A DNA stretch of 19,974 nt from a virus (Duplodnaviria; Heunggongvirae; Uroviricota; Caudoviricetes), in the IMG/VR virus record IMGVR_UViG_2778261458_000009, positions 1 through 19,974 of that record; one strand, given 5' to 3'. The position numbers and the translations under genes were made by a program. Positions 2,985 to 19,974 of the stretch are shown in pieces. The first letter of the stretch is position 1; each line of letters opens with the position of its first letter. The notes under the pieces were generated by a model, which worked only from the letters and a program-made list of their open reading frames with translations, was not told the DNA's origin and searched no databases.

Positions 2985-3064
2985 GAATATCGTCTCTCAC
3001 CTCGTAAGTTATGCAGGCGACATATAAAAAGTTAAATAAAATAGTTGAATCAGATTGAGACATG

Positions 3065-3095
3065 GAAAAGGCTCGCCTGTGCGAGCCTTTTATTT
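3065..3095. terminator. GC-rich hairpin terminator (stem GGCTCGC / GCGAGCC, loop CTGT) flanked by A-run and T-run
   Basis: Perfect 7-bp stem at 3070-3087, TTTTATTT on the plus side and AAAAG on the other. About 70-100 nt downstream of the 429-aa cargo gene stop. Confidence 0.45.
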
Positions 3096-3128
3096 AGGTA
3101 GAGTGTTATAATAAAATCAAATTTACAT

Positions 3129-3153
3129 TATCTTCTTCCAAAAAGAAGATAAT
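3129..3153 (-). terminator. AT-rich hairpin (10-bp stem TTATCTTCTT / AAGAAGATAA, loop CCAAA) directly after the cargo operon stop
   Basis: Perfect inverted repeat read directly. On the minus-strand RNA it is followed by U-rich sequence. Confidence 0.3.
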
Positions 3154-3164
3154 CATCATATCCT

Positions 3165-4454: not shown

Positions 4455-4891
4455 CTAACCACCTCTCTTATACAGGTGAATTTTTCATGAACTCGAGCAT
4501 CTTTACAAAGCCAAATGGTAAAATGAGTCGAATCAGGAGCTCCTGTTTTTAGCATTCTTCCATCCTGTGGATTCAACTCGCCTTTAGCAATAAACCTTTC
4601 ACCTATTCCTTCAGGAAATTTATTAAATACATTTACCAGTGATGTTTCGTCCATGAACATAGAAACACCATAGCAGCATTTCAATTGTAACCCTTGGAAC
4701 TTTTTCATTCTTTTTGGGTTTTCTTCTTTCATGTTTAAAAAACAAGCTTTCCCAGGTGGATTATTTCTGGCTAAGCGATAAAAAACCCCTTCAGCATCCA
4801 AGGACTCTTTTGGAGGAACATCTGCAGGAAAATAATCGGGAAAAATCTGTTGGGCAGAGTCTTCAAGAACCTGCTGTGCATTTTTAGTCAT
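4451..4891 (-). CDS. Hypothetical protein, cargo gene A (146 aa from the ATG at 4889-4891; the ORF track extends to a TTG at 4918)
   Basis: Translationally coupled to gene B (ATGA overlap). AT-rich. Start codon uncertain because no strong RBS precedes either candidate. Confidence 0.65.
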   Translation of the reverse strand: MTKNAQQVLEDSAQQIFPDYFPADVPPKESLDAEGVFYRLARNNPPGKACFLNMKEENPKRMKKFQGLQLKCCYGVSMFMDETSLVNVFNKFPEGIGERFIAKGELNPQDGRMLKTGAPDSTHFTIWLCKDARVHEKFTCIREVVR

Positions 4892-4918
4892 ACAATACGC
4901 TACCCAAGTAATTAACAA

Positions 4919-5486
4919 AAATCTGCCAATTTATTGGATATACACGTCCCAAATCCCTTGGCATCGTATTGAATATAACAACAAGCACATTAATCACATA
5001 TGCAATAAAGGCATAAAAAACACAACATATATAGCAAAAAGAAATCAAAAACAATATACGGGATGATGCGGATTTTTTTTATCTATATATAGTGGCTGGG
5101 CATAAGAATTGTTATAAAGTTGGCGTCCCTTGCTCCCATGTAATCATATGAAACACAGGATATAATTCCTGAAGGTAATCACATACTTCCCTAGATACAT
5201 AGATGAGAGACTAAAATAAAACCTACCGCCAAGAACTATGCCTTTTTCAACCAATCGTACTCTCTGCCCTGTCTAAAAGGCGGCCATTCAAAGCAAGTAC
5301 TTTTTTATGTTTATCAAGAAGCTACTAAGACTATTCAGAACTGATATTTGGATAACAAAATACCAACTTGATGGCGGGTTCTTGAAGATTCTCAACGGCA
5401 GACATACAAAGCCCATCGTTGAGAAAATCTTATCCATATTTTTTGAAAAATGCAAGCTTCATGTCGCTATCTTCGGCGAAAATCAC
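4919..5486 (-). promoter_or_regulatory. AT-rich intergenic region; expected location of the Q-dependent late promoter/qut site and of a promoter for the cargo operon
   Basis: 568 bp with no convincing ORF between the Q stop (5487) and the cargo gene start. Promoter elements not confidently placed. Confidence 0.3.
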
Positions 5487-6239
5487 TTATCTCGTCACCT
5501 TTCTCAATTGTGTTTCAGCATATGCTTCTTCCTGCCAGCACTTTGTTACTAGTTTATCAATTACGTCTGCATATCCTTTGTACCACTGATAATCAGTCAG
5601 GTCTGGAACCAGCTTCTGGACATGACGTCGTGCCAGTGTAGTCGGTAAACGGCTAAACCGGTTTCCATTGCAACGCCCACAAGTCTTATAAACAGGCGTG
5701 CCATGAAGCCGGGTTCTTTTTTCATCCAGGACAATACCTTTCCCCTTACACCCTCTGCACGCCGTGCTGACTTCTCCCTTGCCATGACAATGCTGACACA
5801 GTTCCTTCACCCACTCTTCTTTGATAACGGATTCCCCGCTTCTGGAATATTTCACCACTTCGCGCAATACATTATGAAATCCAGTACCAGCACAATGCTC
5901 ACAGCGAGCCTTACTTGCCGCAGACCTGGAATAATCAGCAAAGGCAAAATTCACAAGGTAAGGGATGATCTGTAACCGGGTTTCTTCACTCAATTTGTTC
6001 AATGTCTGGTTATCCAGTGCCATCGCGTAATTGAGCAGGCCTTCAATCGCAAACTGAGGATCCTGAACTCCAACTTTTGCCAGGAATAAGGCAAACCCAA
6101 GCGGTGCTTTCGACTGCACCATCCCCTGCGCAGCCATTACATCCGTAATTGTTAAACCACCCGAGCCTGTCGCCGGTGCGTCATCGCTCAATTTTGGAGA
6201 TTTTGGGGAGTAATATTTCGGTAAGGCTTCAAGGTTCAT
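5487..6239 (-). CDS. Late-gene antitermination protein Q-like (250 aa) with four CxxCxGxG zinc-finger repeats
   Basis: Position immediately upstream of the lysis module. Repeats CEHCAGTG, CQHCHGKG, CRGCKGKG, CGRCNGNR. Size and architecture recalled as similar to Qin-prophage Q homologs. RBS GGAG 8 nt upstream. Confidence 0.6.
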   Translation of the reverse strand: MNLEALPKYYSPKSPKLSDDAPATGSGGLTITDVMAAQGMVQSKAPLGFALFLAKVGVQDPQFAIEGLLNYAMALDNQTLNKLSEETRLQIIPYLVNFAFADYSRSAASKARCEHCAGTGFHNVLREVVKYSRSGESVIKEEWVKELCQHCHGKGEVSTACRGCKGKGIVLDEKRTRLHGTPVYKTCGRCNGNRFSRLPTTLARRHVQKLVPDLTDYQWYKGYADVIDKLVTKCWQEEAYAETQLRKVTR

Positions 6240-6252
6240 GCTCGTTCTCCAC

Positions 6253-6513
6253 TTACGCCAGTACGCCTATTGCCAGCGCACGATCGATAAAACGAAATAT
6301 CAGCTCCAGCTGGGAGCCATACTTCTCTTCAAATGCCACGGTATCCGCATGCAGCTCGTCGTGATGCTTTCTGCACAAAGGCAACACAAAGAGATCATGC
6401 GCTTTTGTCCCCATTCCACCCTGACCATGGCCTATCAGGTGGTGGGGATCATCAGCAGGCTTTCCACAACATGCACACGGCTGTGTCTTAACCCAGCGCG
6501 TGGTACTTTTCAT
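6253..6513 (-). CDS. Cys/His-rich zinc-binding protein (86 aa), probably the C-terminal part of a split DUF968-like prophage gene
   Basis: CACCGK…HH…PLCRKHHDELH motif. Overlaps the upstream ORF by 26 nt in another frame. Weak RBS. Confidence 0.55.
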   Translation of the reverse strand: MKSTTRWVKTQPCACCGKPADDPHHLIGHGQGGMGTKAHDLFVLPLCRKHHDELHADTVAFEEKYGSQLELIFRFIDRALAIGVLA

Positions 6514-7249
6514 TAACCCAGCGGCGACGTTTTGGGCGTAACATAAAAGACTCCGGCGACTCCGGCTCCACTTTCAGCGCCAGCACCTTTTTCGCCTTAT
6601 CCTGGATGATGCTGGTGGCAGGAACCGAAGGCACAAGGTCACTTTCCCGGGTGACAGACGGCACAACAGGCTTCGGTAATCTCAGTGCCTTACGGGCTGC
6701 ACTTTCCGGTAAGGCATCCGCCAGATCATTACGAATCAGCCACCAGCACAGTTCCGGCATTGTCACAACGTGACTGTCATCAAAACCGAGATCCCGACGC
6801 ACGACAGATAACACCCACCGGGCACAGTTATCCGTTGCCATTGATTCCAGCCGTTCCGTGAACTGATCGCGCAGCTGGTTATCGCAGTGCCAGCACAGAC
6901 GGATTGCGCCCGGCGCGTGTCGCATTGTGGTCATGTTCTCGCTGTGCCAGTCGGAATGAGGCCACTGGCAGCCTTTTTCACGAAGTAACCAGCTTTCAAG
7001 ACATTCCACCCCACCAGCACGACGGATCACTGTCTCATTGCGGAACACGGCCCGAACGGCAGGATCATCCGCCAGCGGTTGTGATGCCGCCGGAACGGCA
7101 CCACTGGCAAAAGATGAATAACGTTCCGGCTCAGGCTCCAGCAGGACACGCCCCTGCATAAACAGGGGCATCAGCTCTGAACCTGGTCTGAACAATACGA
7201 TCCCCATACGTGGGGCAATTTCAGGGGTCAGTAGTGCTCTCACGGTCAC
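6488..7249 (-). CDS. Hypothetical protein (253 aa), probably the N-terminal part of the split DUF968-like gene
   Basis: Long ORF tightly following the KilA-N gene (1-nt gap). Ends within an 11-bp direct repeat. Confidence 0.55.
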   Translation of the reverse strand: MTVRALLTPEIAPRMGIVLFRPGSELMPLFMQGRVLLEPEPERYSSFASGAVPAASQPLADDPAVRAVFRNETVIRRAGGVECLESWLLREKGCQWPHSDWHSENMTTMRHAPGAIRLCWHCDNQLRDQFTERLESMATDNCARWVLSVVRRDLGFDDSHVVTMPELCWWLIRNDLADALPESAARKALRLPKPVVPSVTRESDLVPSVPATSIIQDKAKKVLALKVEPESPESFMLRPKRRRWVNEKYHALG

Positions 7250-7250
7250 C

Positions 7251-8060
7251 TCAATGAACGGTATCGAGCAGCTTTAACAGCTCAGGGAATCGGGATTCGA
7301 AGAAATGCGGCTGCGTCTCGCGCGGATTTGCGGGACTGGTGATGTTCTTGCCGAACATGCAGCCTTTCGCTGTCAGCGACCAGAATTTTTTGATGTTGTT
7401 AATCGCGGTACGGCTGTATCGTTCGCGCTGCTCGACGATCCCCAGCTTCACCATCTGGTGATATGCCTGATTAGCCGTCAGGCGGATACCATACTGTTTC
7501 AGCAGTGCACTCAGTGACAGTGTCGGGCGACTTGAGCCATCGTGTGCATCAGCAGGGGCATCAATGGCATAGCGCGGTGCCAGATTCGGTAAGCCAACAG
7601 CCTCCTGGAGTTTCTGACAGGCACCAAGCACTGAAGAGTTAGACAGGTTTAATTCCCGGCGCATAAAGTCCAGCAGAATCACGCCAGCCTGCATCTTGTC
7701 AGCAGCCTGCCCGGATAATTTTTCCAGTGCGCTGGTTACCATATCGAAAGTACGGATCACCTTTAGATGGAATGACGGGCTGATCCACATTGCATAGGCA
7801 TACACCAGTTCTTTGCAGACATACGTTCCCCGTTCATTTCCCCCATGAATCACACTCACCGGGTCAACACCCAAATTCTGGGTGTTGGTCAATTCATGAA
7901 CAAGCTCAACAGTTTGTTGGCTGGAAAGAAACTTTCCTGGCTCCTTGGTTCTGGCATTTGCACCAGATGCTACTGCTGCGCGATGCAGATCGTTCAGGCT
8001 GTAACGCCCATAAGCATCACGACGAACTTCAATACCATCAATGACCATCAGATTATTCAT
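7251..8060 (-). CDS. KilA-N domain protein / antirepressor-like (269 aa)
   Basis: N-terminal segment …GKFLSSQQTVELVHEL…YVCKELVYAYAMWISPSFHLKVIRTFD… resembles the KilA-N signature. RBS AGGAG upstream. Confidence 0.7.
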   Translation of the reverse strand: MNNLMVIDGIEVRRDAYGRYSLNDLHRAAVASGANARTKEPGKFLSSQQTVELVHELTNTQNLGVDPVSVIHGGNERGTYVCKELVYAYAMWISPSFHLKVIRTFDMVTSALEKLSGQAADKMQAGVILLDFMRRELNLSNSSVLGACQKLQEAVGLPNLAPRYAIDAPADAHDGSSRPTLSLSALLKQYGIRLTANQAYHQMVKLGIVEQRERYSRTAINNIKKFWSLTAKGCMFGKNITSPANPRETQPHFFESRFPELLKLLDTVH

Positions 8061-8079
8061 ACTTCGTTTCTCCTCTTAA

Positions 8080-8469
8080 TCAGGCGGCTGCACCCGCCGG
8101 TTTCTCATACTTACTGATAGTGATCTCGACCTTCCCTTCCGGGATAACCGGTCCCCACTCCACCAGCATTCTTTTCACCTGACTGTCGTCTTCCCACACA
8201 CCCGCGTGGGTCAGGGCGTCAAACAGTGCCTTGTTATAGTTGTCCAGATCGCGGATCCGGTTATCCGGAGGAAACAACACGATCTCCACTGAAGCAGGTG
8301 CCGACGTTGGTTTCGGCAGACGACGTAACTGCTCAACTATTGCTGCGCACGCCGCGCTCTGGAATTTGCGCCCCGCCGCGCTTATCAGGCTTTTACCAGC
8401 AAACGCCCCTTTGTTAGGGTGTCGCCAGTACGTATTCACGCTGGGCGGGAAAGGAAGGATCAACTTCAT
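8080..8469 (-). CDS. rusA: Holliday-junction resolvase RusA (129 aa)
   Basis: …LPFPPSVNTYWRH…RIRDLDNYNKALFDALTHAGVWEDDSQV… matches the RusA family pattern as recalled. Confidence 0.85.
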   Translation of the reverse strand: MKLILPFPPSVNTYWRHPNKGAFAGKSLISAAGRKFQSAACAAIVEQLRRLPKPTSAPASVEIVLFPPDNRIRDLDNYNKALFDALTHAGVWEDDSQVKRMLVEWGPVIPEGKVEITISKYEKPAGAAA

Positions 8470-8792
8470 ACTTTCAGGCCCCTCTCATGTAACCAGTAGG
8501 CTGCACGCAGCCTGGCGTTTTCCTCACCGGCAAGCAGTGAGCGGATAATCCCGACCGCCTCGCTGTCGTCGTCCTTCACCGCGGTATGAAGCGTTATCCC
8601 CCGGGCCACGCCACGCTTTATCGTGATGACGCCTTTTTTCTCCAGTGCGCGAAGATGCTCCACCGCTGCATTCACCGAACGGTATCCCAGCATGGTTGCC
8701 ACCTCCTGATTGGTTGGCGGAAAGCCACGCTCTTTCTGATAAGAAATCAGCATATCCAGCACCTGCTGCTGGCATTGAGTTAACGTCGTCAT
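8466..8792 (-). CDS. LexA N-terminal DNA-binding-domain protein (108 aa, no peptidase domain)
   Basis: …LTQCQQQVLDMLISYQKERGFPPTNQEVATMLGYRSVNAAVEHLRALEKKGVITIKRGVARGITL… parallels the LexA N-terminus as recalled. ATGA overlaps with the Dam and RusA genes. Confidence 0.8.
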   Translation of the reverse strand: MTTLTQCQQQVLDMLISYQKERGFPPTNQEVATMLGYRSVNAAVEHLRALEKKGVITIKRGVARGITLHTAVKDDDSEAVGIIRSLLAGEENARLRAAYWLHERGLKV

Positions 8793-9442
8793 GCCGCCAT
8801 CTCCCTGACCAGTTTTTCCGCCTGCTGGCGAACCTGCGCCAGAAAGGCCTCACCACATGCCTCAAGTTCATCGCGCCCGATGTAGCTGATTGCCGGTCCC
8901 TTCCAGGTCTTGTCGAAAACAGCAATAGCACCAGCGAAGAAAGCGCCTGTCGGCACCTGCTTCTCGTCCTTCGGGATAAACCAGGCAGGCAGTTCAAAAC
9001 CAATACGCCCGCGAATAAAAGCAATATGGTCCGCATCTTCCGGCCACCACACTTCGCTGGTGGCAGCTTTGATCAGGAAAACATAGCGCCCGCCCTTATC
9101 ACGCATGGCACTGGCATGTTTCATGATGTAACGCATGCCGGTGATGTATTGCCCCTCATGCTGACTGGCGCGGCTGTATGGGGGATTACCAAAGGCAGCA
9201 CCTTTAAGCTCCGCAAGACGTTCTGACCAGTCATGCGCCAGCGCGTTGTCTTCCGCCGTGTAATACGCGGCACATTTGGCGTTATCACCGTCAGTGAACA
9301 GATCCAGAACAAACGGACCAAACAAGGTGTTAATTCCCCAGAAAATGTTGTCCGGCGTGCGCCACTGATCGCCCACTTCCTTCAGTTCATGGGCTGGTTT
9401 GTTCCGCAGTTCTACCAGCGCCTGGCAATATTTATTACTCAT
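8789..9442 (-). CDS. Phage DNA N6-adenine methyltransferase (Dam family, 217 aa)
   Basis: NPPY motif (AFGNPPYS). Position within the early-right operon. Confidence 0.8.
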   Translation of the reverse strand: MSNKYCQALVELRNKPAHELKEVGDQWRTPDNIFWGINTLFGPFVLDLFTDGDNAKCAAYYTAEDNALAHDWSERLAELKGAAFGNPPYSRASQHEGQYITGMRYIMKHASAMRDKGGRYVFLIKAATSEVWWPEDADHIAFIRGRIGFELPAWFIPKDEKQVPTGAFFAGAIAVFDKTWKGPAISYIGRDELEACGEAFLAQVRQQAEKLVREMAA

Positions 9443-9534
9443 TAAGCCCCCACGTAAAAAGCATCCGCAATGTCTCCGGAAGTACAGCCCGGATGGGCTT
9501 CAATGAATTTCTGAACTTCATTCAAAAGACTCAT
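9442..9534 (-). CDS. Small ORF (30 aa: MSLLNEVQKFIEAHPGCTSGDIADAFYVGA) translationally coupled between the O-like and Dam genes
   Basis: ATG 2 nt after the O-like stop (TGATCATGA). Its TAA overlaps the Dam ATG (TAATG). Hand-translated; below the ORF-track cutoff. Confidence 0.35.
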   Translation of the reverse strand: MSLLNEVQKFIEAHPGCTSGDIADAFYVGA

Positions 9535-9536
9535 GA

Positions 9537-10355
9537 TCACCCCCTGAATCCTGCCGGGATCTGGCTGTAGTCCACGTTGTCGTAACTGGCTTTGAAGTAC
9601 GGGTCCTCGCGTCTGGCTGCAGATACCGCAGGAACTTCCCAGGATTCTTCGAAATGACGATCCGGACCAAAGAACGTGACAGCCTGTTTCACAAATTGTG
9701 TACCGCTATTGCCCATCGCAGATACCCAGCCCGCGTAGCGTTTCACACCTTCCAGCATGGTTTCGGGGTTTACCCCCTCGTTCAAACGGGCTTTCCAGGC
9801 TTTGAAGGCTGCTGATTTTGAATTGCCACCAGCACGTTTGGGATATGCCAGCCATGCCTGCTCAAACTCCGGAGAGTATTCCGGTCGGTTTGAACGAACT
9901 CGCACAGACTCATCAGCAGATGCACCAACAGCTATTGGTTCATTGACTGATTCTTTGACTGGTTCAAAAGAGTGACTGGTTCTGGGTGAATCTCCTGCAC
10001 TACCCCCTGGTGCAACTCCTGCACTACCTGGTGAATTTGCTGCACCAGATAGTGAATTATTTGCACTACCCCCTAGTGAATCTCCTGCACCATCCAGATG
10101 AAGGAGATAGATATTACTTGAGTTACCTTTTTCACCTTTCCGGGTGACTTTTTTTACCAGCCCGGACTCACAAAGGGCCGCAATATGATTCATCACAGAA
10201 CGTTTGCTAATCTCGCACTGGTCAGCAATATGCTGGTAGCTGGGCCAGCACTCACCCTGATCGCTGGCATTATCAGCCAGCTTGATCAGAACCAGTTTTC
10301 GCAATGGATTACCCACTCGAATTTTCATCGCTTTAACCATCAGCTCCATACTCAT
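9537..10355 (-). CDS. Replication initiator, O-like (272 aa): N-terminal wHTH, Gly/Ala/Ser linker, conserved phage C-terminal domain
   Basis: N-terminal HTH-like segment, low-complexity linker encoded by tandem DNA repeats, position after cII/Rha as in lambdoid replication modules. Confidence 0.7.
   Translation of the reverse strand: MSMELMVKAMKIRVGNPLRKLVLIKLADNASDQGECWPSYQHIADQCEISKRSVMNHIAALCESGLVKKVTRKGEKGNSSNIYLLHLDGAGDSLGGSANNSLSGAANSPGSAGVAPGGSAGDSPRTSHSFEPVKESVNEPIAVGASADESVRVRSNRPEYSPEFEQAWLAYPKRAGGNSKSAAFKAWKARLNEGVNPETMLEGVKRYAGWVSAMGNSGTQFVKQAVTFFGPDRHFEESWEVPAVSAARREDPYFKASYDNVDYSQIPAGFRG
9985..10095. repeat. Five tandem ~21-24 bp imperfect direct repeats (approx. GTGAATCTCCTGCACTACCCCCT) inside the O-like gene, followed by an AT-rich stretch; candidate origin iterons
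   Basis: Repeats read directly at 9985-10008, 10009-10029, 10030-10051, 10052-10074 and 10075-10095. Lambda ori iterons likewise lie within gene O. Confidence 0.5.
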
Positions 10356-10576
10356 GCTGCACCTCCGAGATGCTTCATGTTTTTTCCGGAGCGAAAGGCT
10401 ATAAGCGGCATACTGACGCGGTAATTACGGCCCAGCGGTTCACAAATCACCTTCTGACATTCACGGTCAACCAGGCTAACACGTAGAACATGCCCTGCAG
10501 GTGTGGTGTACCACTGACCCGGACGAGGACAACGGAAAGTCTGATTGGTAAACCGTTTGAAAATATTCCGGATCAT
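10352..10576 (-). CDS. Hypothetical protein (74 aa)
   Basis: ATGA overlaps on both sides (with the Rha-domain gene stop and the O-like gene start). Confidence 0.5.
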   Translation of the reverse strand: MIRNIFKRFTNQTFRCPRPGQWYTTPAGHVLRVSLVDRECQKVICEPLGRNYRVSMPLIAFRSGKNMKHLGGAA

Positions 10577-11721
10577 TTGCGCCCCCTTACCTCTGAAGGG
10601 TTCAGCGACAAATTTATGAGGCAGGCCAGCGCCGAAGCATCATTAATATAGTCATACAAGCTAACAGCCAGCGGAGATTCGTCTTTTGCCAACATAGGAT
10701 AAAGCTGCTGCAGCCAGACCTGATGAATTGATGAAATGTAGGAATAGAGAACGCTGGCGTTATGTGCAACGTCGCTCGGTACAGGGGGTTTTGAAAGCTG
10801 TTTCTCCATCTGGTTAAAGGCATTGATATATGCCTCTTTGAACTGGGCAGCACGTTTACCCGTGAAACCCATAGCAAGAAACGCAAAGCCGTCGCGGGTT
10901 ATTTGATAGCAAGGTAGTTTGCGGCCTGATGCGTCGATGTACTCACTGAGCTGAAAATTCAGCTCAGTAAATTCGGCAGAGCATTCAAGAGACGCAATTT
11001 TTTGAATGACATTTTTGTGTTGTTTGCCGAAATAACTAGCAACAGCCAGAGAAGAAGTAACAACTTTGTCTGCAATAATGCAAAGTTCAGGTTGTACTAA
11101 GGCAGGGATCGTAGCCATGATGGCAGCCTCCGTATGCAATGGATAACTTCCACCACCGGAAACGCCAATTTCGCTGGTGGTGAACTGAGCAGGGTTGGCG
11201 TAACCGGCGCATACGGAAACCGGCGCACCTTTCGGTGCCCCCACCCAGCCCACCATAATTTGGGTATAGCTGAGTTGTAGCAACAAAAAAGACGCTAACG
11301 CGCCAATTGTCGCCGTATGCAATTCCAGGACGCCAATCCCGGCACCCGCTTTATAAGGTGCCTGAACAGTGTAACGTCCCGGAATGGCAGAATCAATGTG
11401 CTGGTGGTCCTTCACACTCAACAAAATCACGCCTGAATTTCCACAAAGGACTAAAGCACTCATGCGGGTAGTCTTTGCGAAGATAGATAACGCGCTGTGT
11501 TTCTGGTTCCCAACGAATAACATGAACATAAAGCCCTCTTCCGTCACGAAACCAGCGGTTAAGTTCCTGCACAACTCGCCCCCCACAGTCAGGTAAAGTT
11601 CTCTGTGGTTACTTACAGCCAGGTGATTTGGTAATCTGCATTCATGCCGTAACAACAGGTGTTCAGAGACGCTGACCACCAGCTGTTGCGACAAACGGTT
11701 ATTTGCCGTTAAACTGTTCAT
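10573..11721 (-). CDS. Rha-domain protein: 382-aa ORF with the Rha domain in the C-terminal 182 aa; a strong internal start at 11116-11118 could give a 182-aa Rha protein
   Basis: …FGKQHKNVIQKI…YQITRDGFAFLAMGFTGKRAAQFKEAYINAFNQM… matches the Rha signature. The 5' ATG at 11719-11721 overlaps the cII-like stop (ATGA). The internal ATG is preceded by GGAGG. Confidence 0.65.
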   Translation of the reverse strand: MNSLTANNRLSQQLVVSVSEHLLLRHECRLPNHLAVSNHRELYLTVGGELCRNLTAGFVTEEGFMFMLFVGNQKHSALSIFAKTTRMSALVLCGNSGVILLSVKDHQHIDSAIPGRYTVQAPYKAGAGIGVLELHTATIGALASFLLLQLSYTQIMVGWVGAPKGAPVSVCAGYANPAQFTTSEIGVSGGGSYPLHTEAAIMATIPALVQPELCIIADKVVTSSLAVASYFGKQHKNVIQKIASLECSAEFTELNFQLSEYIDASGRKLPCYQITRDGFAFLAMGFTGKRAAQFKEAYINAFNQMEKQLSKPPVPSDVAHNASVLYSYISSIHQVWLQQLYPMLAKDESPLAVSLYDYINDASALACLINLSLNPSEVRGRK

Positions 11722-12326
11722 GCGTTAGTTTCTCCACAGACACAAAACGCCACGACGCCCGGAGCTGCACACTCGCGGGCGTCACTCTTTTCTGGAGCGC
11801 AAAAGATTTTGTAGACCAGTGCTGCATGCTCCTGGAGCTTCGAAATTGACAGATACAACTCATCATTAATTGCTGTCTGCTCGTGTGGTTCCACCACCCC
11901 GTCTTCAATTGCTGAACGAATCTGTTTTGAATAACTGCCGATCTGTTCAATGACCTCCAGCAGGCGTTGGTTTATATCGGCGTTCTCTACTTCCTCAATT
12001 TCAGGAAGCGATACAAACACCCCACCAGCAGACTGTGCGACTGCATCCGCAATGTGGTGAGTGCCAGCAGCACGCTGTAAAACCATTGCCCATCCCAGCG
12101 GGAAAATCTGATCGCCATCGGCACGAAGGCGGTTAAATAATGCGTTCTCTGTTACATCCAGCCAGTCAGCAGCTTCAGCGTAACCCCCCGGCAATGCCGC
12201 GATAGTTTTTCTGACAGCTTTCACGTACCACTCAGGCTGTTTTTCTACTTTCCAGTGATGCTTACCCACGGTTAGCCTCATCGTTCTGTGGTTTCTGTTA
12301 ATCGATTTATCCATTAGATTTTTCAT
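11718..12326 (-). CDS. cII-like phage regulatory protein (CP76-type; about 202 aa from Met20; start uncertain)
   Basis: Position directly after cro. Family assignment is from memory and tentative. The ORF-track start at 12383 would overlap cro by 77 nt, so a downstream Met (12326, 12314 or 12281) is more likely. Confidence 0.5.
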   Translation of the reverse strand: MKNLMDKSINRNHRTMRLTVGKHHWKVEKQPEWYVKAVRKTIAALPGGYAEAADWLDVTENALFNRLRADGDQIFPLGWAMVLQRAAGTHHIADAVAQSAGGVFVSLPEIEEVENADINQRLLEVIEQIGSYSKQIRSAIEDGVVEPHEQTAINDELYLSISKLQEHAALVYKIFCAPEKSDARECAAPGVVAFCVCGETNA

Positions 12327-12507
12327 AAAGCTCAGGTTTAAATGGCAACCGTCCGCAAGTTCTATATGCAGCTTCTGCTGCACGTCCTTTTGGAATTAAC
12401 TGGCCCGGACGGTTTCGCCACTGATAAACGGCTTCAGTTGTTATGCCGAAAAAAGCAGCAACTTTCTCAATACTGCCGAAGTAGCTTTCGATATCGTCAG
12501 TTGTCAT
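12307..12507 (-). CDS. Cro-like HTH regulator (66 aa)
   Basis: Divergent from cI. RBS GGAGGG 5-6 nt before the ATG. HTH-like …VAAFFGITTEAVYQWRNR…. Confidence 0.75.
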   Translation of the reverse strand: MTTDDIESYFGSIEKVAAFFGITTEAVYQWRNRPGQLIPKGRAAEAAYRTCGRLPFKPELYEKSNG

Positions 12508-12604
12508 ACGCCCTCCAAACTAAGTTTTATTAGATGCTAATTACAAATCTATCTTTGGTCAATAAAAACTAAGATTACTTAGCAATTCAAGAAATGGTGC
12601 TCCT
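12508..12604. promoter_or_regulatory. OR-like operator/promoter region between cro and cI
   Basis: Perfect 14-bp palindrome CTAAGATTACTTAG (12569-12582) and related CTAAGTTTTATTAG (12520-12533). Minus-strand -35 TTGACC (12557-12562) and -10 TAGCAT (12534-12539), spacer 17, with the second operator over the -10/start. Confidence 0.6.
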
Positions 12605-13231
12605 ATGGAAACGGTTGGTCAGCGTATAAAAGCTCTGAGAAGAGTTACCAGAACGTCCCAGAAAGAATTGGGTAAATTTTGTGGAGTAAGCGACGTTGCT
12701 GTGGGGTACTGGGAGAAAGACATCAATACCCCTGGTGGGGAGGCACTTTCGAAATTAGCGAAGTTCTTCAATACGTCAATAGATTACATTCTTTATGGTG
12801 CTGAGTTTGAAGGCAAACTCGTCACAAACATGCGCAGAGTTCCTGTAATATCGTGGGTTCAGGCTGGGCAGTTTACTGAGTGCAGGGCAGCAGAAGTGTT
12901 TAGTGAAGTGGACAAGTGGGTAGATACATCATTAAAGATTGGTGATAACTCATTTGCATTAGAGGTTAAAGGTGACTCCATGACTAACCCTAATGGCCTC
13001 CCAACAATACCAGAAGGCGCAACAGTGATTGTAGATCCAGATGCAGAACCTCGTCATGGAAAAATAGTCATCGCTCGACTTGATGGAACAAACGAAGCTA
13101 CAGTAAAAAAATTAGTCATCGATGGCCCTCAAAAGTTTTTAGTGCCATTAAATCCTCGGTATCCCAACATCCCTATCAATGGTAATTGCCTTATCATTGG
13201 TGTAGTCAAAGGAGTTCAATACGAACTCTAA
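12605..13231 (+). CDS. CI-like repressor, HTH plus S24 LexA-like peptidase domain (208 aa)
   Basis: N-terminal HTH (…QKELGKFCGVSDVAVGYWEKD…), Ala-Gly cleavage-type site (VQAGQF), catalytic Ser in GDSM and Lys in KKLV. Confidence 0.9.
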   Translation: METVGQRIKALRRVTRTSQKELGKFCGVSDVAVGYWEKDINTPGGEALSKLAKFFNTSIDYILYGAEFEGKLVTNMRRVPVISWVQAGQFTECRAAEVFSEVDKWVDTSLKIGDNSFALEVKGDSMTNPNGLPTIPEGATVIVDPDAEPRHGKIVIARLDGTNEATVKKLVIDGPQKFLVPLNPRYPNIPINGNCLIIGVVKGVQYEL

Positions 13232-13284
13232 GACCTCTCTTCTCTAACTAAGGCACCGAACTAAGAAAAGTTTGGTGTTTTCTC

Positions 13285-13313
13285 TTGCCATAATAACTAA
13301 GTTAAGTTAGATT
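13285..13313 (+). promoter_or_regulatory. Putative pL-like promoter with OL-type operator
   Basis: -35 TTGCCA (13285-13290), 17-nt spacer, -10 TAGATT (13308-13313). Operator-like CTAAGTTAAGTTAG (13297-13310) lies in the spacer; further CTAAG copies at 13248-13252 and 13261-13265. Confidence 0.4.
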
Positions 13314-13421
13314 TTATATCAAAGATAACGAACAGGCAGGACGCCCACGAAGTAGCCGCCGGTGGCGTATGAATGACCGGATGATTCGTTAGCAACAAAA
13401 AAAGCGCCCTATAGGACGCTT

Positions 13422-13434
13422 CGCTCTTTAACAA
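13422..13434 (+). promoter_or_regulatory. boxA-like element CGCTCTTTAACAA (candidate nut-site boxA)
   Basis: GCTCTTTAACAA matches the rrn/nut boxA core as I recall it, about 100 nt downstream of the putative pL. No convincing boxB hairpin or N-like protein found. Confidence 0.4.
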
Positions 13435-13465
13435 TCCTGGTATCCCCGTAACAAAAGAGGGTTCT

Positions 13466-13759
13466 ATGGTCATATTCTGTGCTTACGTTCATCCTAATGG
13501 ATTTTTTATCAGCACCAACCAACAAGACGAATTCTGGATTCTACTTAGTAAGCAGGTCGGATGGGGACGATTCTGTCTAATCCGACCAGAATCAGAATTT
13601 ACAGAGAATGGAGGGCTTTTTGAATTACGTGAAATACGTCCGGCAGATGGTCAAGCCCCTGACCAAGTAATCGAATCGTCAGCTGTTTTATGGCGTCGGC
13701 AGGAAGCGTTCGAAGCTGAGAGAGTAATTTCTTCTTATCTTCAGTCGTGGCAGAAGTAG
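13466..13759 (+). CDS. Hypothetical protein (97 aa)
   Basis: RBS AGAGGG 5 nt before the ATG. Its 3' 161 nt overlap the convergent 167-aa ORF, so one of the two may be spurious. Confidence 0.4.
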   Translation: MVIFCAYVHPNGFFISTNQQDEFWILLSKQVGWGRFCLIRPESEFTENGGLFELREIRPADGQAPDQVIESSAVLWRRQEAFEAERVISSYLQSWQK

Positions 13760-14102
13760 AACTATTGATGATACGTTCAAGTTCACAGAGAGTCTCATCA
13801 TGCAATCTTATTGTCATAATCCCAAGAATAGCTTTAAGACCTCCATCATCACGAATGAAATCAATTCCATCTTTAGTAATTCTTAATTCAGGAATATTTA
13901 TATTTATGCCATCCAAGTAATAATCAAGAGCATTCTTAATCAAGCCATGTTCTTCGAGATAAATTAAGTTCGAAATTAGGACATTATCATCTCCAAATGC
14001 GTCACGAACAGACTGCAACGCATCATCAGAAATTTCATAAGGATGAGCATCATACAGTATTTGTAACAACTGCCTTTGTGCACTTCTATCAAATTTGTCC
14101 AT
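13599..14102 (-). CDS. Hypothetical protein (167 aa), AT-rich accessory gene convergent with cI
   Basis: ATG at 14100-14102 with GGTGA about 9 nt upstream. 5' two-thirds markedly AT-rich by eye. No family recognised. Confidence 0.55.
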   Translation of the reverse strand: MDKFDRSAQRQLLQILYDAHPYEISDDALQSVRDAFGDDNVLISNLIYLEEHGLIKNALDYYLDGININIPELRITKDGIDFIRDDGGLKAILGIMTIRLHDETLCELERIINSSTSATTEDKKKLLSQLRTLPADAIKQLTIRLLGQGLDHLPDVFHVIQKALHSL

Positions 14103-14571
14103 CTTAAATAATCACCATGTTATTGGGGTTATCAAGATTAACCGAATCCTTGTTGTTGGGGAATAACCAGGTCCACCTCGCCTGATGTGGCTAAAAGCAG
14201 GCACATAACAGCTAAGTATTTTCAACCAGAGAGAATCCTTAGCGTTGTGGTGAATGCGGCTCAGCGCACGCGGGTTAAGGTTGAGGCTGACAGTCGACCT
14301 TCTGTGGATACCCACCCGTCTGGTGTGCAACCTTCGCCAGGCACCGGGAGGCACCCGGCACCACAACTTTATGCTGTGTGTAGTCCTGGCGGTACCAGTT
14401 TGTACCCTTGCTTCCGGCTGGTACCGTCCTTTTTACAAAACAGAGAAGAGCATCACCGGACGACGGGCTCATAACCCAATCCATCCTGGCGGCTGCCACC
14501 GCAGGTGTTCTTCTCTGTTTTGTGGAGAAACTAATCGGCCTTGCAGGGTCGATATGATGAGGAGCAGCAAA

Positions 14572-14934
14572 ATGGCTAGCGAACGCAGTACTGATGTGCA
14601 GGCATTTATCGGGGAGCTGGACGGCGGCGTATTTGAAACCAAAATCGGCGCAGTTCTCAGTGAAGTCGCTTCCGGTGTGATGAACACGAAAACCAAAGGT
14701 AAGGTCTCACTCAACCTGGAAATCGAACCATTTGATGAGAACCGTGTGAAAATCAAACACAAACTCTCATATGTTCGCCCGACTAACCGCGGGAAAATTT
14801 CCGAAGAAGACACCACCGAAACGCCGATGTATGTCAATCGCGGTGGTCGCCTGACTATTCTGCAGGAAGACCAGGGACAGTTACTGACTCTTGCCGGTGA
14901 ACCTGACGGAAAACTCCGCGCAGCAGGTCGTTAA
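14572..14934 (+). CDS. Hypothetical early-left protein (120 aa), YfdP-like by size and position
   Basis: Strong RBS GAGGAG 7 nt before the ATG at 14572. The ORF-track 226-aa version has an implausible Arg-rich N-terminal extension. Confidence 0.7.
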   Translation: MASERSTDVQAFIGELDGGVFETKIGAVLSEVASGVMNTKTKGKVSLNLEIEPFDENRVKIKHKLSYVRPTNRGKISEEDTTETPMYVNRGGRLTILQEDQGQLLTLAGEPDGKLRAAGR

Positions 14935-14999
14935 TATCGTTTTTAATTAACTGATTATTTATCTCATCACTGAATATCTTTATATAGTGAGGACTTATT

Positions 15000-15824
15000 A
15001 TGTCTCAGAACTTAGACGCAACCGCAATTAATCAAATCCATGCCCTTATTTCTGCTCAGGGTGTTAATGAAATTATCAGTAAGATTGGTGCCGATGCTGT
15101 GGCATTGCCTGAGAATTTCCGCATTCATGATCTGGAAAAATTTAATTTAAATCGCTTCCGTTTCCGTGGTGCGCTTTCCACTGCCAGCATCGATGACTTT
15201 ACCCGTTATTCTAAAGATCTTGCAGATGAAGGCACCCGCTGCTTTATCGATGCTGATAATATGCGTGCCGTCAGTGTGCTTAACCTGGGTACTATTGATG
15301 AACCAGGTCACGCAGATAACACCGCCACTCTCAAACTGAAAAAGACAGCACCGTTCTCTGCTCTGTTGTCTGTTAACGGCGAGCGTAACTCCCAGAAGTC
15401 ACTGGCAGAATGGATTGAAGACTGGGCCGACTACCTTGTGGGCTTTGATGCTAATGGTGACGCCATTCAGGCAACAAAAGCGGCTGCGGCAGTCCGTAAA
15501 ATCACAATTGAAGCGAACCAGACTGCTGATTTTGAAGACAATGACTTCAGCGGCAAACGCTCCCTGATGGAGTCTGTCGAAGCGAAGACCAAAGACATTA
15601 TGCCAGTGGCATTTGAATTTAAATGCGTTCCGTTTGAAGGCCTGAAAGAACGTCCATTTAAATTACGACTCAGCATTATCACTGGTGATCGCCCTGTACT
15701 GGTTCTGCGCATTATTCAGCTGGAAGCAGTGCAGGAAGAAATGGCTAACGAATTTCGTGATCTGCTTGTTGAGAAATTCAAAGACAGCAAAGTAGAAACC
15801 TTTATTGGTACTTTCACCGCCTGA
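15000..15824 (+). CDS. DUF2303-type prophage protein (274 aa), YfdQ-like
   Basis: Size and operon context match the CPS-53 yfdPQRST cluster as recalled. RBS GAGGA upstream. Confidence 0.7.
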
Positions 15825-15951
15825 TTTCATTACTGCAAATGCCCCTGCGGGGGCATTTATGGAAACGTAATTAACTCAATAATCACCGGATGGTGAGGGC
15901 TTCCTTTTACCAGAATTCAGCGCGGTGCAGTGCATATACGTGGAGAACAAA

Positions 15952-16488
15952 ATGTCATTTATTAAAACTTTTTCCGGGAAGCATTTTTATTATGACAAGA
16001 TAAATAAAGACGACATCGTTATTAACGATATCGCGGTTTCCCTTTCAAATATCTGTCGCTTTGCAGGACATCTTTCACACTTCTACAGCGTCGCCCAACA
16101 TGCGGTGCTTTGCAGCCAGCTGGTACCGCAGGAATTTGCTTTTGAAGCGTTAATGCATGATGCAACAGAAGCGTATTGCCAGGACATTCCCGCACCACTG
16201 AAACGCCTTCTTCCTGACTATAAACGGATGGAAGAAAAAATAGACGCCGTAATCCGTGAGAAATACGGGTTACCCCCGGTTATGAGCACACCTGTGAAAT
16301 ATGCCGATCTCATCATGCTGGCGACCGAACGCCGCGATCTCGGGCTTGATGATGGCTCTTTCTGGCCTGTACTGGAAGGTATCCCGGCAACAGAGATGTT
16401 CAAAGTGATTCCACTGGCACCGGGTCATGCCTACGGGATGTTTATGGAACGTTTTAACGAGTTATCGGAGTTACGCAAATGCGCATGA
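15952..16488 (+). CDS. HD-domain phosphohydrolase (178 aa), YfdR-like
   Basis: H…HD motif (…SVAQHAV…LMHDATEAY…). ATG at 15952 preceded by GGAG at 6-nt spacing; the ORF-track GTG at 15925 is less likely. Confidence 0.75.
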   Translation: MSFIKTFSGKHFYYDKINKDDIVINDIAVSLSNICRFAGHLSHFYSVAQHAVLCSQLVPQEFAFEALMHDATEAYCQDIPAPLKRLLPDYKRMEEKIDAVIREKYGLPPVMSTPVKYADLIMLATERRDLGLDDGSFWPVLEGIPATEMFKVIPLAPGHAYGMFMERFNELSELRKCA

Positions 16489-16841
16489 ATGTTTTCGAAA
16501 TGGAAGGGTTTCTTCGCGGGAAATGTGTACCGCGAGATCTGAAAGTGAACGAAACAAATGCTGAGTATCTGGTGCGTAAATTCGATGCGCTTGAAGCTAA
16601 ATGTGCGGCACTGGAAAACAAAATAATACCAGTGTCAGTTGAACTGCCACCATCAAATGAAAGTGTTCTGTTATTTGATGCTAACGGAGAAGGCTGGCTA
16701 ATTGGCTGGCGTTCTCTCTGGTACACCTGGGGACAAAAAGAAACCGGAGAATGGCAGTGGACATTTCAGGTCGGGGACCTTGAAAACGTCAATATCACTC
16801 ACTGGGCAGTAATGCCGAAAGCACCGGAGGCTGGGGCATAA
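16479..16841 (+). CDS. Hypothetical phage protein (120 aa) with DUF551-like C-terminus (…THWAVMPKAPE)
   Basis: 10-nt overlap with the upstream gene; TAATG coupling to the downstream gene. Confidence 0.65.
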   Translation: MRMNVFEMEGFLRGKCVPRDLKVNETNAEYLVRKFDALEAKCAALENKIIPVSVELPPSNESVLLFDANGEGWLIGWRSLWYTWGQKETGEWQWTFQVGDLENVNITHWAVMPKAPEAGA

Positions 16842-17452
16842 TGACCACTTTCACCGATAAGGAACTGATTAAAGAAATCAAAGAACGAATCGGCAGCTTA
16901 GACGTGCGAGACAATGTTGAGCGCCGTGCTTATGAAATTGCTCTGGCATCACTGGAAGCAGAGCCGGTGGCGTGGCTTCATTCAGACAATGGCTTAGGTA
17001 TTCCGGCAATAACCAGGAGCAAAAACATTGCTGACAGTTGGTTATCAAAGGGCTGGTATGTTCAGCCGCTATATATGGCTCAGCCTGTGTCGGTGGTGCC
17101 GGATGCTCTTCCGTCTTTAAATAATGGCATAGTCGGCTTTGATGAAGGCTGGAACGCCTGCCGCGCCGTCATGCTTCATGGTGCCGAACCTGTAAGCCAG
17201 ACTTACAAGTTGAACAAGCTGTCGGGCAACCCTCCGGTAACTCCGGATGGTTGGATAAGCTGTAGTGAGCGAATGCCAGAGGACGGTCAGCACGTAATTA
17301 TTTTATGTGATGGCGCATTCGTTCTTTATGCGCAATATCGAGACGGTGAGTTTTTTGATGTTGTCCGCAGTGGTGAGGAGTTCTTCGAAACGCAGAGCCG
17401 CAATGTAACCCACTGGATACCGCTACCGGAGCCGCCGCAGGAGGTAAATTAA
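16841..17452 (+). CDS. DUF551-like phage protein (203 aa; C-terminus …VTHWIPLPEPP)
   Basis: TAATG coupling on both sides. C-terminal motif recurs in the preceding gene. Confidence 0.65.
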   Translation: MTTFTDKELIKEIKERIGSLDVRDNVERRAYEIALASLEAEPVAWLHSDNGLGIPAITRSKNIADSWLSKGWYVQPLYMAQPVSVVPDALPSLNNGIVGFDEGWNACRAVMLHGAEPVSQTYKLNKLSGNPPVTPDGWISCSERMPEDGQHVIILCDGAFVLYAQYRDGEFFDVVRSGEEFFETQSRNVTHWIPLPEPPQEVN

Positions 17453-17646
17453 TGAACAACTTAATGACAACAAAACAAGTCGCCGAATTCTGTGGCGTTT
17501 CAATATCGACGGTGCTTCGCTGGAATAGCGTAAACCGGAGAACTGGCAAGAAATACAGACCAGACTTTCCAGATCCTGATATTAAATCCTGCCCAAATAA
17601 ATGGGCATCACAAAAGATTTACAGGTTTGCAGGAGTCATTGAGTAA
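17452..17646 (+). CDS. Excisionase / AlpA-family HTH protein (64 aa)
   Basis: …TTKQVAEFCGVSISTVLRW… HTH pattern; last gene of the early-left operon, adjacent to int. Confidence 0.65.
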   Translation: MNNLMTTKQVAEFCGVSISTVLRWNSVNRRTGKKYRPDFPDPDIKSCPNKWASQKIYRFAGVIE

Positions 17647-17781
17647 TATGCCTTAGATCAGATGTAAGCTGACACACCACTATGGCACAGAGTCAAACCT
17701 AATCTAACTACCTGCTCTGTGCCAAAAGAAGATACTACTAACATAATTATAAAATAATCAACGGGAAATAGCTCATCTGTA

Positions 17782-18597
17782 CTACTCCACAAGCGGGATA
17801 AGTTTTTTACCTGTGTCTTCAAAGAATGAAAACGAAGACCAGCGGTAAGTATATAAAAAAGCCACCTTGCCTGCATGTTCTTCGATAGCTTTTTTTAAAT
17901 ATGACTTGCGTTTACTGACTTTTGGAAATTTATCCGAAAAGATAACTATTGCTCTTGATGATAGTCCACCACCATTTCGCATAAAGAGAGTAAACTCACT
18001 CAATCTAAGCATGTTGAAATTTGCACAATTCGCTACATCATTATCAAACTTAGCAACTATACTTTTTATTTTGTCATACAGACTGACCATATCCCTAAAA
18101 ATATTTTCATCTGCCAACTGAATATTTCTTTCATTCAACTCTGTTATATACTTATTATCATCCACTATTCCAATAGGGTATCGAGCATTTAAAACTATAT
18201 CTCGAGACGCAACCTTCAATAACTTCAGCTCGTCAACGGTTAATGGCAAACCTAAATCAACAGCCATACAATCAAGTTTATGCCCATAATTACAAAACTC
18301 ATTTTCAATAGCTTTTTTTCTCGCACCGAGATTCATTAGAAGAATCGCTGACTTTAACAACATTTCAAAAGCATACCCCAACATAAGTCTGCTAGTTTTA
18401 TCAGTTGCCGATGCGATATCGATGTATTCATGAACAACAGGAGATTTCTTACTTGCTGTCCGAAGCAATTTTTTGTTTCGCTCACCTTCACTTCTCAACA
18501 GCTTCGCAGATAAATACAGTTGTTTAGACTCTGTTAACCAAGCCTTTCGATCAAATATACCTTTCCCATTTTTCTGCGTGATTATCTCGCTCTGCAT
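17782..18597 (-). CDS. Hypothetical protein (271 aa), AT-rich accessory gene between xis and int
   Basis: ATG at 18595-18597 preceded by AGGAG at 6-nt spacing. Markedly AT-rich by eye. No family recognised. Confidence 0.7.
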   Translation of the reverse strand: MQSEIITQKNGKGIFDRKAWLTESKQLYLSAKLLRSEGERNKKLLRTASKKSPVVHEYIDIASATDKTSRLMLGYAFEMLLKSAILLMNLGARKKAIENEFCNYGHKLDCMAVDLGLPLTVDELKLLKVASRDIVLNARYPIGIVDDNKYITELNERNIQLADENIFRDMVSLYDKIKSIVAKFDNDVANCANFNMLRLSEFTLFMRNGGGLSSRAIVIFSDKFPKVSKRKSYLKKAIEEHAGKVAFLYTYRWSSFSFFEDTGKKLIPLVE

Positions 18598-18750
18598 CAA
18601 TAACTCCTATGTTATTAGAATCAAACCTGCCACTAATCAATTGCAAATCTCGTCGCTGTTATTTTGACCAGACATTACATTGCTCCATTTGTAAAATACC
18701 ACTTAACTAACTTGAATGAGAAATTGTAAGTATTCCGACAAAACAGACTA

Positions 18751-19974
18751 TCAGTTGGGGTTTAAGCTAGCACAAGTAACGATCGATTCAACCCTATCCC
18801 ACCACGCCTGGTAGGCTTTACGCTGTTCTTCTAGATAATCGCTCTTGTCATAAACCTGCCAAACCCCTGGCAGTTTATGGCCGAGCATTATTTCTGCAAT
18901 ATGAGGAGCAGTAAGATCAGAAAAATTTGTTCGTGCTGTTCGCCTCAAATCATGAAGAGACCAATGAGGGAATTGATACCCCAAACGCCGCCATGCGTAC
19001 TGCATTAAATTGTAAGGCAGCGACTGCAATGATGTTCGACCAACGGGTTCCCTGCTTCCTTCCTTAGTAAAAAGCATATCGGAACCATTGTTCATAGAGA
19101 TAGCGTTCTTTATAAGCTCTTCCACCGGTTCAATAATGGGCCGCTTTAGCGGTTCGCCCGTTATCTCCCCAGTCTTATGTCGTTCAGGTGGTACAATCCA
19201 TACCTTATTAATGAAATCAAAATCGTCCACCCTAGCAGTAATTAGCTCTGAACTACGACAGCCAAAATGCAGCAATAGCTTAATGAAGGCCCGGTATTTA
19301 GGAACCATTCGAGAACCATCGATCGCAGCATAAAGGATTTTAATTTCATCATGTGTCAGAAACCGTTTCTTCTGACCTTTACGGATATCCATATCTTTAC
19401 CCGTGATATCCGACAGCGGGCGAGTTTCAATGAGCTTTCTCTTATACGCCCAGACATGGGCCTGCTTTGCGTTAATTAGCAATCGGTCTGCTATTGCTGG
19501 AGTCTTAGTGCTAAGAGGCTCCAGGACTTCTAACCAATCATGCAATGTAGCTGCATCGTGAGGGATATTCCCGATTTTAGAAAACAGGTGCAGCTCAAAC
19601 GAGCGGAGTATCTGTTCAGAACCTTTTTTATTTTTTACACAATATGCTTCATACCAGGCACGGATCACAGACTCTACCGTCATGGCCTCAGTAGCTTTTC
19701 GTTTTTCAGCTTGCTTGACCAATCGTGGATTACGGTTTGACTCAAGTTCACCACGGAGACGGATAACTTCTTCTCTGGCCTCTTTTAATCCAGTTGCCGG
19801 ATAAGTTCCGATATCAAGACGCTCACCTTTCCCTGCCCATTGATAACGATATTGGAACACTACGCGACCTTTCGGTGATACTCTGACAGACAGACCATCA
19901 CGATCGGATTTAACCAAAACCTTATCACGTTCCTTTCCAACGACTGAACGCAACCACGCATCAGACAGCGCCAT
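18751..19974 (-). CDS. Tyrosine-type site-specific integrase (407 aa)
   Basis: Start codon at the window edge (19972-19974). N-terminal arm-binding-like region and C-terminal catalytic pattern (…HDLRRTARTN…LGHK…Y…) typical of phage integrases. Confidence 0.9.
   Translation of the reverse strand: MALSDAWLRSVVGKERDKVLVKSDRDGLSVRVSPKGRVVFQYRYQWAGKGERLDIGTYPATGLKEAREEVIRLRGELESNRNPRLVKQAEKRKATEAMTVESVIRAWYEAYCVKNKKGSEQILRSFELHLFSKIGNIPHDAATLHDWLEVLEPLSTKTPAIADRLLINAKQAHVWAYKRKLIETRPLSDITGKDMDIRKGQKKRFLTHDEIKILYAAIDGSRMVPKYRAFIKLLLHFGCRSSELITARVDDFDFINKVWIVPPERHKTGEITGEPLKRPIIEPVEELIKNAISMNNGSDMLFTKEGSREPVGRTSLQSLPYNLMQYAWRRLGYQFPHWSLHDLRRTARTNFSDLTAPHIAEIMLGHKLPGVWQVYDKSDYLEEQRKAYQAWWDRVESIVTCASLNPN

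Follow-up and report, generated by a model that had tools for sequence, protein, structure and literature searches.

A swappable cargo gene in the xis-int gap of a lambdoid Escherichia coli prophage encodes a predicted solo HEPN protein with a plausible role in anti-phage defence

A conserved AT-rich gene between xis and int

We analysed a DNA window of 19,974 nucleotides (nt; IMG/VR record IMGVR_UViG_2778261458_000009, positions 1 to 19,974) and focused on a gene of 271 amino acids (aa), hereafter the cargo gene, located in the gap between an excisionase-like (xis-like) gene and the integrase gene (int) of a lambdoid Escherichia coli prophage. The coding sequence spans positions 17782-18597 on the minus strand, stop codon included, and its product is identical to WP_096932276.1, annotated in that record as 'hypothetical protein'. 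We set the start at the ATG at 18597. Use of the in-frame TTG one codon before it would lengthen the product to 272 aa, but every homologue begins at a Met aligned to the ATG and not at the TTG. A Shine-Dalgarno sequence read from the minus strand (AGGAG, 18604-18608) is separated from the ATG by 6 nt (TTATTG) and is kept in a Klebsiella copy of the gene (L016). The cargo gene is convergent with the plus-strand early-left operon, which ends with the xis-like gene (64 aa, 17452-17646, plus strand; sub-threshold HTH_17/MerR helix-turn-helix matches). It shares its strand with, and lies 153 nt downstream of, a P4-type tyrosine integrase gene (Arm-DNA-bind_3 + Phage_int_M + Phage_integrase; 18751-19974, minus strand) that adjoins yjjG.

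With a G+C content of 35.9% (32.7% at third codon positions), the cargo gene differs clearly from the whole window (46.0%) and from the flanking int and DUF551 genes (45-50%). Outside the two AT-rich islands, windows of 816 nt had a minimum of 39.3% and a mean of 48.4 ± 4.1%, which places the gene about three standard deviations below that mean. The non-coding stretch of 153 nt that separates the cargo gene from the int stop codon (18598-18750, minus strand) is AT-rich as well (33.3% G+C). It holds a weak candidate promoter (TTGATT-17-TAATAA), and only its final ~45 nt are common to homologous copies elsewhere. The gene keeps a G+C content of 36-38% in Escherichia, Enterobacter and Klebsiella hosts (37-38% in the Enterobacter and Klebsiella copies), although the genomes of the latter two genera are GC-rich. 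Its ratio of nonsynonymous to synonymous substitution rates against the Enterobacter and Klebsiella copies is 0.13-0.19. That is, the open reading frame (ORF) is a real gene, conserved at constant length and under purifying selection. An earlier reading of the bare sequence (the original prediction) had described a 271-aa ORF at this position and strand in the xis-int gap, with a strong AGGAG ribosome binding site at 6-nt spacing, a markedly AT-rich composition, an AT-rich upstream region and an orientation opposite to the early-left operon; the ORF call and the computed composition agree with it on each of these.

The gene occupies a swappable slot

The original prediction had further taken the int-proximal position for a cargo slot and the gene for a candidate accessory or defence gene. 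As a comparison set we used three sister prophages (L021, L022 and L023) that are integrated at the same yjjG site and encode a 96% identical integrase. Blastn homology to the window extended up to positions 17730-17733 and resumed from 18744-18767, which delimits a variable cassette of ~1.0 kb (17734-18743) composed of the cargo gene with 48 nt downstream and 146 nt upstream of it. Apart from ORFs overlapping the cargo gene itself, the cassette has no second ORF of at least 40 aa. In the sister prophages the slot is filled by genes that are unrelated to the cargo gene and lie in either orientation: two plus-strand genes of 248 and 137 aa in strain IR53017 (L021 2948-4104), a plus-strand gene of 460 aa in strain 2014C-3011 (L022 2320-3702) and a minus-strand gene of 413 aa in isolate 30821_1#117 (L023 1998-3239). 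Since prophages with the same integrase at the same site carry unrelated genes between sharp breakpoints, the cargo gene is a horizontally exchanged, discrete prophage cassette, and the original prediction holds in this respect too. Neither Pfam nor PADLOC gave a match for the alternative occupants (248 + 137, 460 and 413 aa), which represent further uncharacterised cargo candidates.

A rare but widespread protein family

The cassette gene is intact at the DNA level in 19 of 5,426 complete E. coli genomes. The 90% identity cluster of the protein comprises 69 member sequences, one variant of which occurs on 643 contigs. Homologues of 269-272 aa with 46-80% identity were found throughout Enterobacterales (Klebsiella, Enterobacter, Serratia, Yersinia, Pectobacterium, Pantoea and others). 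A profile search of 1.84 billion representative sequences yielded 185 clusters (50% identity) at E ≤ 1e-3, with relatives mostly of 260-295 aa that cover both domains described below. Named distant members came from Roseovarius, Pseudoruegeria, Methylobacterium, Litorivita, a Rhodovibrionaceae bacterium and a metagenome-assembled genome of Nitrospirales; all of them are annotated as 'hypothetical' and none has a Pfam domain. The family is rare but widespread, reaching from Enterobacterales to marine Alphaproteobacteria and Nitrospirales. Locus scans with alignment A1 retrieved only 3 genome and 4 viral loci. No homologue was detected by tblastn of the protein against 50,697 phage records and 72,556 plasmids, nor by megablast against the phages.

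Literature and supplement searches with the accessions and the GYAFEMLLKSA motif did not return any mention of the protein. Among the systems that DefensePredictor validated in E. coli, four contain HEPN; in the parts of its supplements that were covered, neither the family accessions nor the signature peptide were found.

Two relatives deviate from the common architecture. P0051 (L024 378-1853, 491 aa) has an extra C-terminal extension of ~230 residues with the sequence RNKHVAH (Rx5H, with N after the R) and a weak match to HEPN_AbiU2 (E 0.025), and may represent a fusion of the cargo-protein family to a second, canonical HEPN domain. P0133, a metagenomic protein of 769 aa, consists of 12 tandem repeats of ~55 residues ('WQRSAGAAAGGRLYVRATVVFSDKEQ...') that match profile positions 208-254, within the C-terminal domain, with a notable likeness to the RxGGG-strand motif. 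An oddity of assembly or of eukaryotic origin is the probable explanation.

A predicted HEPN fold with a small C-terminal domain

Sequence libraries were silent about the cargo protein: searches of Pfam, PADLOC, PHROGs and NCBIfam returned noise only, and two profiles found no match among the PDB sequences. PF05168 (HEPN-T) gave no match to the protein at E ≤ 10, hence none at its gathering threshold, and matched 4 of 57 distant relatives at E ≤ 1 (best E 0.0028). The AbiV models of Pfam (HEPN_AbiV) and PADLOC stayed below threshold for the protein and its relatives.

We then used an AlphaFold2 model (mean predicted local distance difference test score 83.6, predicted template modelling score 0.80). 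Foldseek against the viral BFVD structures gave nothing at E < 1e-3. Structure comparison returned 1UFB, 2HSB and 3O10 as top matches, followed by a nucleotidyltransferase-associated HEPN protein (11.1), the sacsin HEPN domain (10.5), HEPN-MNT toxins (10.2, 9.7 and 9.2), YutE, HI0074 and Csm6 (8.7). In the model, residues ~14-186 (18040-18558, minus strand) form an up-down bundle of four helices with an insert between helices 2 and 3, as expected for HEPN domains; by DSSP, the helices comprise residues 17-47, 54-88, 121-138 and 147-161/164-186, and the insert comprises 94-104 and 108-115. Residues 187-271 (17785-18039, minus strand) are modelled as a C-terminal domain of three strands, two helices and two strands, which bears R207-x-G209-G210 (17965-17979 covers R207-G211) and W253. 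Since this domain is present in nearly all full-length relatives, both domains form one unit. From the model, the cargo protein is a solo HEPN protein, consisting of an N-terminal HEPN fold, which many RNases of phage defence have, and a small C-terminal alpha/beta domain. For the latter, the fold of which has no assignment, we propose a regulatory or sensor role by analogy to HepS and Tha (see below). The original prediction had found no assignable motif. That holds for the sequence libraries, PADLOC included, and for the BFVD search; at the level of structure, which a reading of the bare sequence could not reach, HEPN entries were matched. Homology to a phage housekeeping protein did not emerge from Pfam, PHROGs, NCBIfam or the phage tblastn search.

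Conserved residues point to a possible alternative HEPN site

Conservation was assessed in 57 family sequences that share 21-41% identity with the window protein. Invariant or nearly so are W20, E78, K82, H106, R139, Y140, P141, R207, G209, G210 and W253. E78 (56/57) and K82 (57/57) form an Ex3K motif in HEPN helix 2 (residues 54-88; GAA ... AAG, 18352-18366, minus strand), corresponding to Ex3[KR], the second conserved element of HEPN proteins (PMC3710099). R139-Y140-P141 (56/57, 57/57 and 57/57; 18175-18183, minus strand) lies at the end of helix 3 (121-138), and R139 is placed where the R of the HEPN Rx4-6H motif sits. The sole invariant His is H106 (CAT, 18280-18282, minus strand; 57/57), which lies N-terminal to R139 in the insert between helices 2 and 3 and is the candidate catalytic His.

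In HEPN proteins the Rx4-6H motif is located where helix 3 ends, and many families have Ex3[KR] in helix 2 (PMC3710099). For AbiV and AF0298-type HEPN-T proteins, which lack the motif His, Anantharaman et al. described a second strongly conserved His from the helix 2-3 insert, which together with a retained basic residue could form an alternative active site (PMC3710099). The residue pattern of the cargo protein fits this description, and we propose a non-canonical site composed of the His of the helix 2-3 insert and the Arg of the RYP motif.

Gene neighbourhoods of relatives

We inspected 11 genomic contexts of homologues. The Klebsiella copy P0002 (80% identical) is located in a P4-like satellite at smpB (L016) with the order integrase, 214-aa gene, Abi_alpha, HEPN gene, Mrr_cat, AlpA and DUF927 primase. 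Copies with 52-57% identity directly follow 546-547 aa integrases of phage-like elements, and a Serratia copy lies inside an element with a resolvase and an integrase. More distant copies adjoin an AbiJ_NTD4 gene or an ImmA-type regulator. One relative is part of an island with RES, a 1,273-aa SIR2 protein, an AAA_16/TPR (STAND-type) NTPase, NADAR and YAcAr, and another adjoins a KAP NTPase. The gene immediately upstream varies by lineage (Mrr_cat, 232 aa, 93 aa, 66 aa or none) and is absent in the window and in L020, so no fixed partner is evident. An MNT/NTP_transf_2 neighbour was found neither in the window nor in the 11 contexts, and tandem repeats of the kind that suggests a type III RNA antitoxin were not found in the cassette. 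With regard to an abiV2-like RNA, the conserved non-coding element next to the cargo gene is limited to the ~45 nt upstream, in a test that an unstructured RNA would escape.

In Pantoea and Enterobacter, HEPN-family genes are adjoined by a pair of genes encoding DUF8209 (148-154 aa) and DUF1493 (108 aa), and in Serratia by DUF1493 alone (L009 6841-7607, L020 9037-9821 and L012 6752-7078). Side and orientation of the module vary, and it is absent from the window; it may be another mobile module that uses the same hotspots.

Comparison with known HEPN systems

AbiV of Lactococcus is the closest known system in active-site layout. It is an RNase by experiment, the nearest neighbours of its crystal structure are 2HSB, 1UFB and 3O10, its R91-x5-H97 lies in a flexible segment after the second core helix, the R91A exchange abolishes RNase activity, and it requires an RNA antitoxin, abiV2 (bioRxiv 10.1101/2024.05.05.592566). 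Our model has the same three top structural neighbours. With AbiV and the AF0298/TT1696-type HEPN-T proteins (PF05168 clade), the cargo protein has in common an Ex3K-type acidic/basic pair of helix 2, a retained basic residue where helix 3 ends and, within the insert that follows helix 2, a conserved His. It differs from both in its extra 85-residue C-terminal domain with the RxGG motif, in the lack of any sequence model match and in that neither an abiV2-like RNA nor an MNT partner was detected for the cargo gene. In addition, the spacing in the cargo family is [KR]x3-4H rather than the Rx5H of AbiV, and the E. coli allele no longer has this basic residue.

HepS, a 'HEPN solo' anticodon nuclease with a canonical R100-H105 encoded by the Gifsy-1 prophage of Salmonella, provides the model for a single protein that both senses a phage protein and executes abortive infection (PMC13043305). 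Like the cargo protein, it is a single HEPN protein carried as accessory cargo of a lambdoid prophage without a partner gene. However, the canonical R...H is absent in the cargo protein, and no PDB sequence matched it. Tha-1 and Tha-2 represent tail-activated HEPN defences of S. aureus prophages with a C-terminal HEPN domain (R265x4H270) and an inhibitor, Ith; the phage 80alpha gene annotated as 'xis' is in fact the Tha inhibitor (PMC11087260). The cargo protein resembles Tha in being prophage-encoded, in its size (Tha has ~300 aa), in combining HEPN with a non-HEPN region and in its location next to int and a small 'xis'-annotated gene. It is set apart by the description of Tha, whose HEPN domain is C-terminal and canonical, whereas that of the cargo protein is N-terminal and non-canonical. 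As a single prophage gene in an accessory slot without a conserved partner, the cargo gene is comparable to these solo prophage HEPN defences, but, judged by the PDB sequences and the missing canonical motif, its product is not a sequence member of them. By analogy to Ith we considered the xis-like gene as a cognate inhibitor and rejected this, since it is kept in sister prophages that carry different cargo. From HEPN-MNT (HepT/MntA) type VII toxin-antitoxin systems the cargo gene differs by having neither an adjacent MNT gene nor the RX4HXY motif.

A candidate anti-phage effector and its alternatives

The HEPN fold and the gene neighbourhoods of the relatives make a defence role plausible, and we regard the cargo gene as a credible anti-phage candidate. 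At about an even chance, in our estimate, its product acts as a solo HEPN effector of abortive infection or superinfection exclusion that defends by triggered RNA cleavage. The protein would be expressed from the lysogen as a single-protein effector and held inactive as an oligomer until an infecting phage supplies a component that is sensed by the C-terminal domain or at the oligomer interface. RNA such as tRNA or rRNA would then be cut in the HEPN cleft, where E78 and K82 position H106 and R139, and both translation and the phage cycle would come to a halt. We infer here that the lysogen expresses the gene and that its product forms oligomers and acts as an RNase, and likewise the trigger and the defence phenotype; in favour of this effector reading we list the HEPN-type residue pattern, the swappable slot, the mobile or defence neighbourhoods of the relatives and the precedent of HepS and Tha, and we also count in its favour a second AT-rich, PD-T4-10-like cargo in the same prophage.

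Several observations weigh against the effector reading. The canonical Rx4-6H is absent, as no His follows R139 at a distance of 4-6 residues in the 57-sequence alignment. Of the 57 sequences, 51 have a basic residue (K/R) 4-5 positions before H106. All E. coli alleles examined have Cys102 in its place, which raises doubt over the catalytic competence of the window allele; if that basic residue is catalytic, the E. coli allele could be inactive. The protein has no match to a defence-database model, and our literature search found no experimental data for any family member. The neighbourhood evidence from the 11 contexts is qualitative and not a statistical enrichment, and one relative is surrounded by housekeeping genes. 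A consensus scan of the minus strand between 18598 and 18750 found no sigma-70-like promoter, so that an own promoter is not demonstrated, and the scan did not find an intrinsic terminator for the cargo gene either. Finally, the 78-80% identical copies examined (P0002, L002 and L003; Klebsiella and Enterobacter) lie behind a nuclease gene of Mrr type. This 302-aa Mrr_cat/NA-iREase1-like gene (L016 7052-7960 in the satellite) is on the same strand and ends ~40 nt before the HEPN gene, in the satellite as in the Enterobacter copies L002 and L003.

The last observation may reflect a two-gene arrangement of nuclease and HEPN protein in the P4-like satellite and Enterobacter lineages, and because of it the cargo protein might normally work with a partner that is missing in the window. 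It would then be half of a two-gene system, either nuclease plus HEPN or toxin plus an unseen antitoxin, which is now orphaned or reliant on an unrecognised RNA or protein partner and may serve to stabilise the prophage (addiction) and not defence. That small or unknown ORFs (232, 93 or 66 aa) precede other copies, that AbiV needs its RNA antitoxin and that the 80alpha 'xis' gene turned out to encode the Tha inhibitor would all agree with such a system. We nevertheless consider it improbable: the lineage-dependent upstream gene is lacking in the window and in L020, the cassette offers neither a separate second ORF nor repeats of the type III antitoxin kind, the xis-like gene belongs to a backbone shared by prophages with other cargo, and the E. 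coli copy is intact in the 19 complete genomes and on hundreds of contigs. Rather unlikely, too, is a non-catalytic HEPN protein that binds nucleotides or RNA in a regulatory or adaptor role, in the manner of MtlR or of the substrate-binding HEPN domains of nucleotidyltransferases, and confers its benefit without RNA cleavage. While the missing canonical motif and Cys102 leave room for such a role, H106, R139, E78 and K82 are (near-)invariant across sequences of no more than 21-30% identity, the same residue set is the proposed alternative HEPN active site (PMC3710099), and a nucleotidyltransferase partner was found in 0 of 11 contexts. The position beside int and xis is a location of lysogeny functions and would suit an ordinary phage function in replication, recombination or lysogeny control. 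However, unrelated genes replace the cargo gene in the sister prophages, there is no PHROG match, and tblastn found it in none of the 50,697 phage records and 72,556 plasmids. A spurious ORF is ruled out by purifying selection and conserved motifs, and we deem an ordinary phage function or a non-functional gene very improbable.

A more far-reaching version of the effector reading, which we put forward tentatively and consider somewhat doubtful, is that the cargo protein is the first example of a so far unrecognised family of immune effectors that act as single proteins and in which a non-canonical HEPN site is switched on by a C-terminal RxGG phage sensor. HepS and Tha have only recently been shown both to sense phage structural proteins and to kill by RNA cleavage. 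If the proposal is true, the cargo family would add a third, unrelated lineage of solo prophage HEPN proteins, with non-canonical catalysis and a candidate sensor domain that matches no known fold. The xis-int slot of yjjG-integrating E. coli prophages would then be a hotspot, and the other genes it harbours would be candidates just as uncharacterised. Current annotation and defence-finder models all miss the family, so that it is at present invisible in genome surveys.

Other features of the prophage

The remainder of the window is a lambdoid E. coli prophage of the yfdPQR/CPS-53 type, which in E. coli genomes adjoins yjjG. Its gene set includes an S24 repressor, a CII-like gene, Rha/Ash, KilA-N, DUF968, a Q antiterminator, a holin and Rz. 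In the convergent gap after the xis-like gene, we found a perfect 10-bp inverted repeat (TGGCACAGAG / CTCTGTGCCA, 22-nt loop; 17683-17724), which lies outside the cassette and is conserved backbone common to L021-L023. We rejected it as a terminator, given that both strands lack a T-run and that it belongs to the backbone and not to the cassette; it could serve protein binding or RNA processing.

Opposite to the early-left operon lies an ORF of 167 aa (13599-14102, minus strand, 37.9% G+C) that overlaps a 97-aa plus-strand ORF (13466-13759). It had no significant Pfam match and could be another moron or a spurious ORF. The second AT-rich cargo (3165-4918, minus strand, 34-38% G+C) is located between the Q antiterminator gene (5487-6239) and the holin gene (2649-2984). 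Its two genes, one of 155 aa and one of 429 aa (Pfam DUF6575 + DUF7226), match PADLOC PD-T4-10_A (E 3.4e-10) and PD-T4-10_B (E 1.7e-7). Judged by these matches, the pair is probably a distant two-gene defence system of the PD-T4-10 type.
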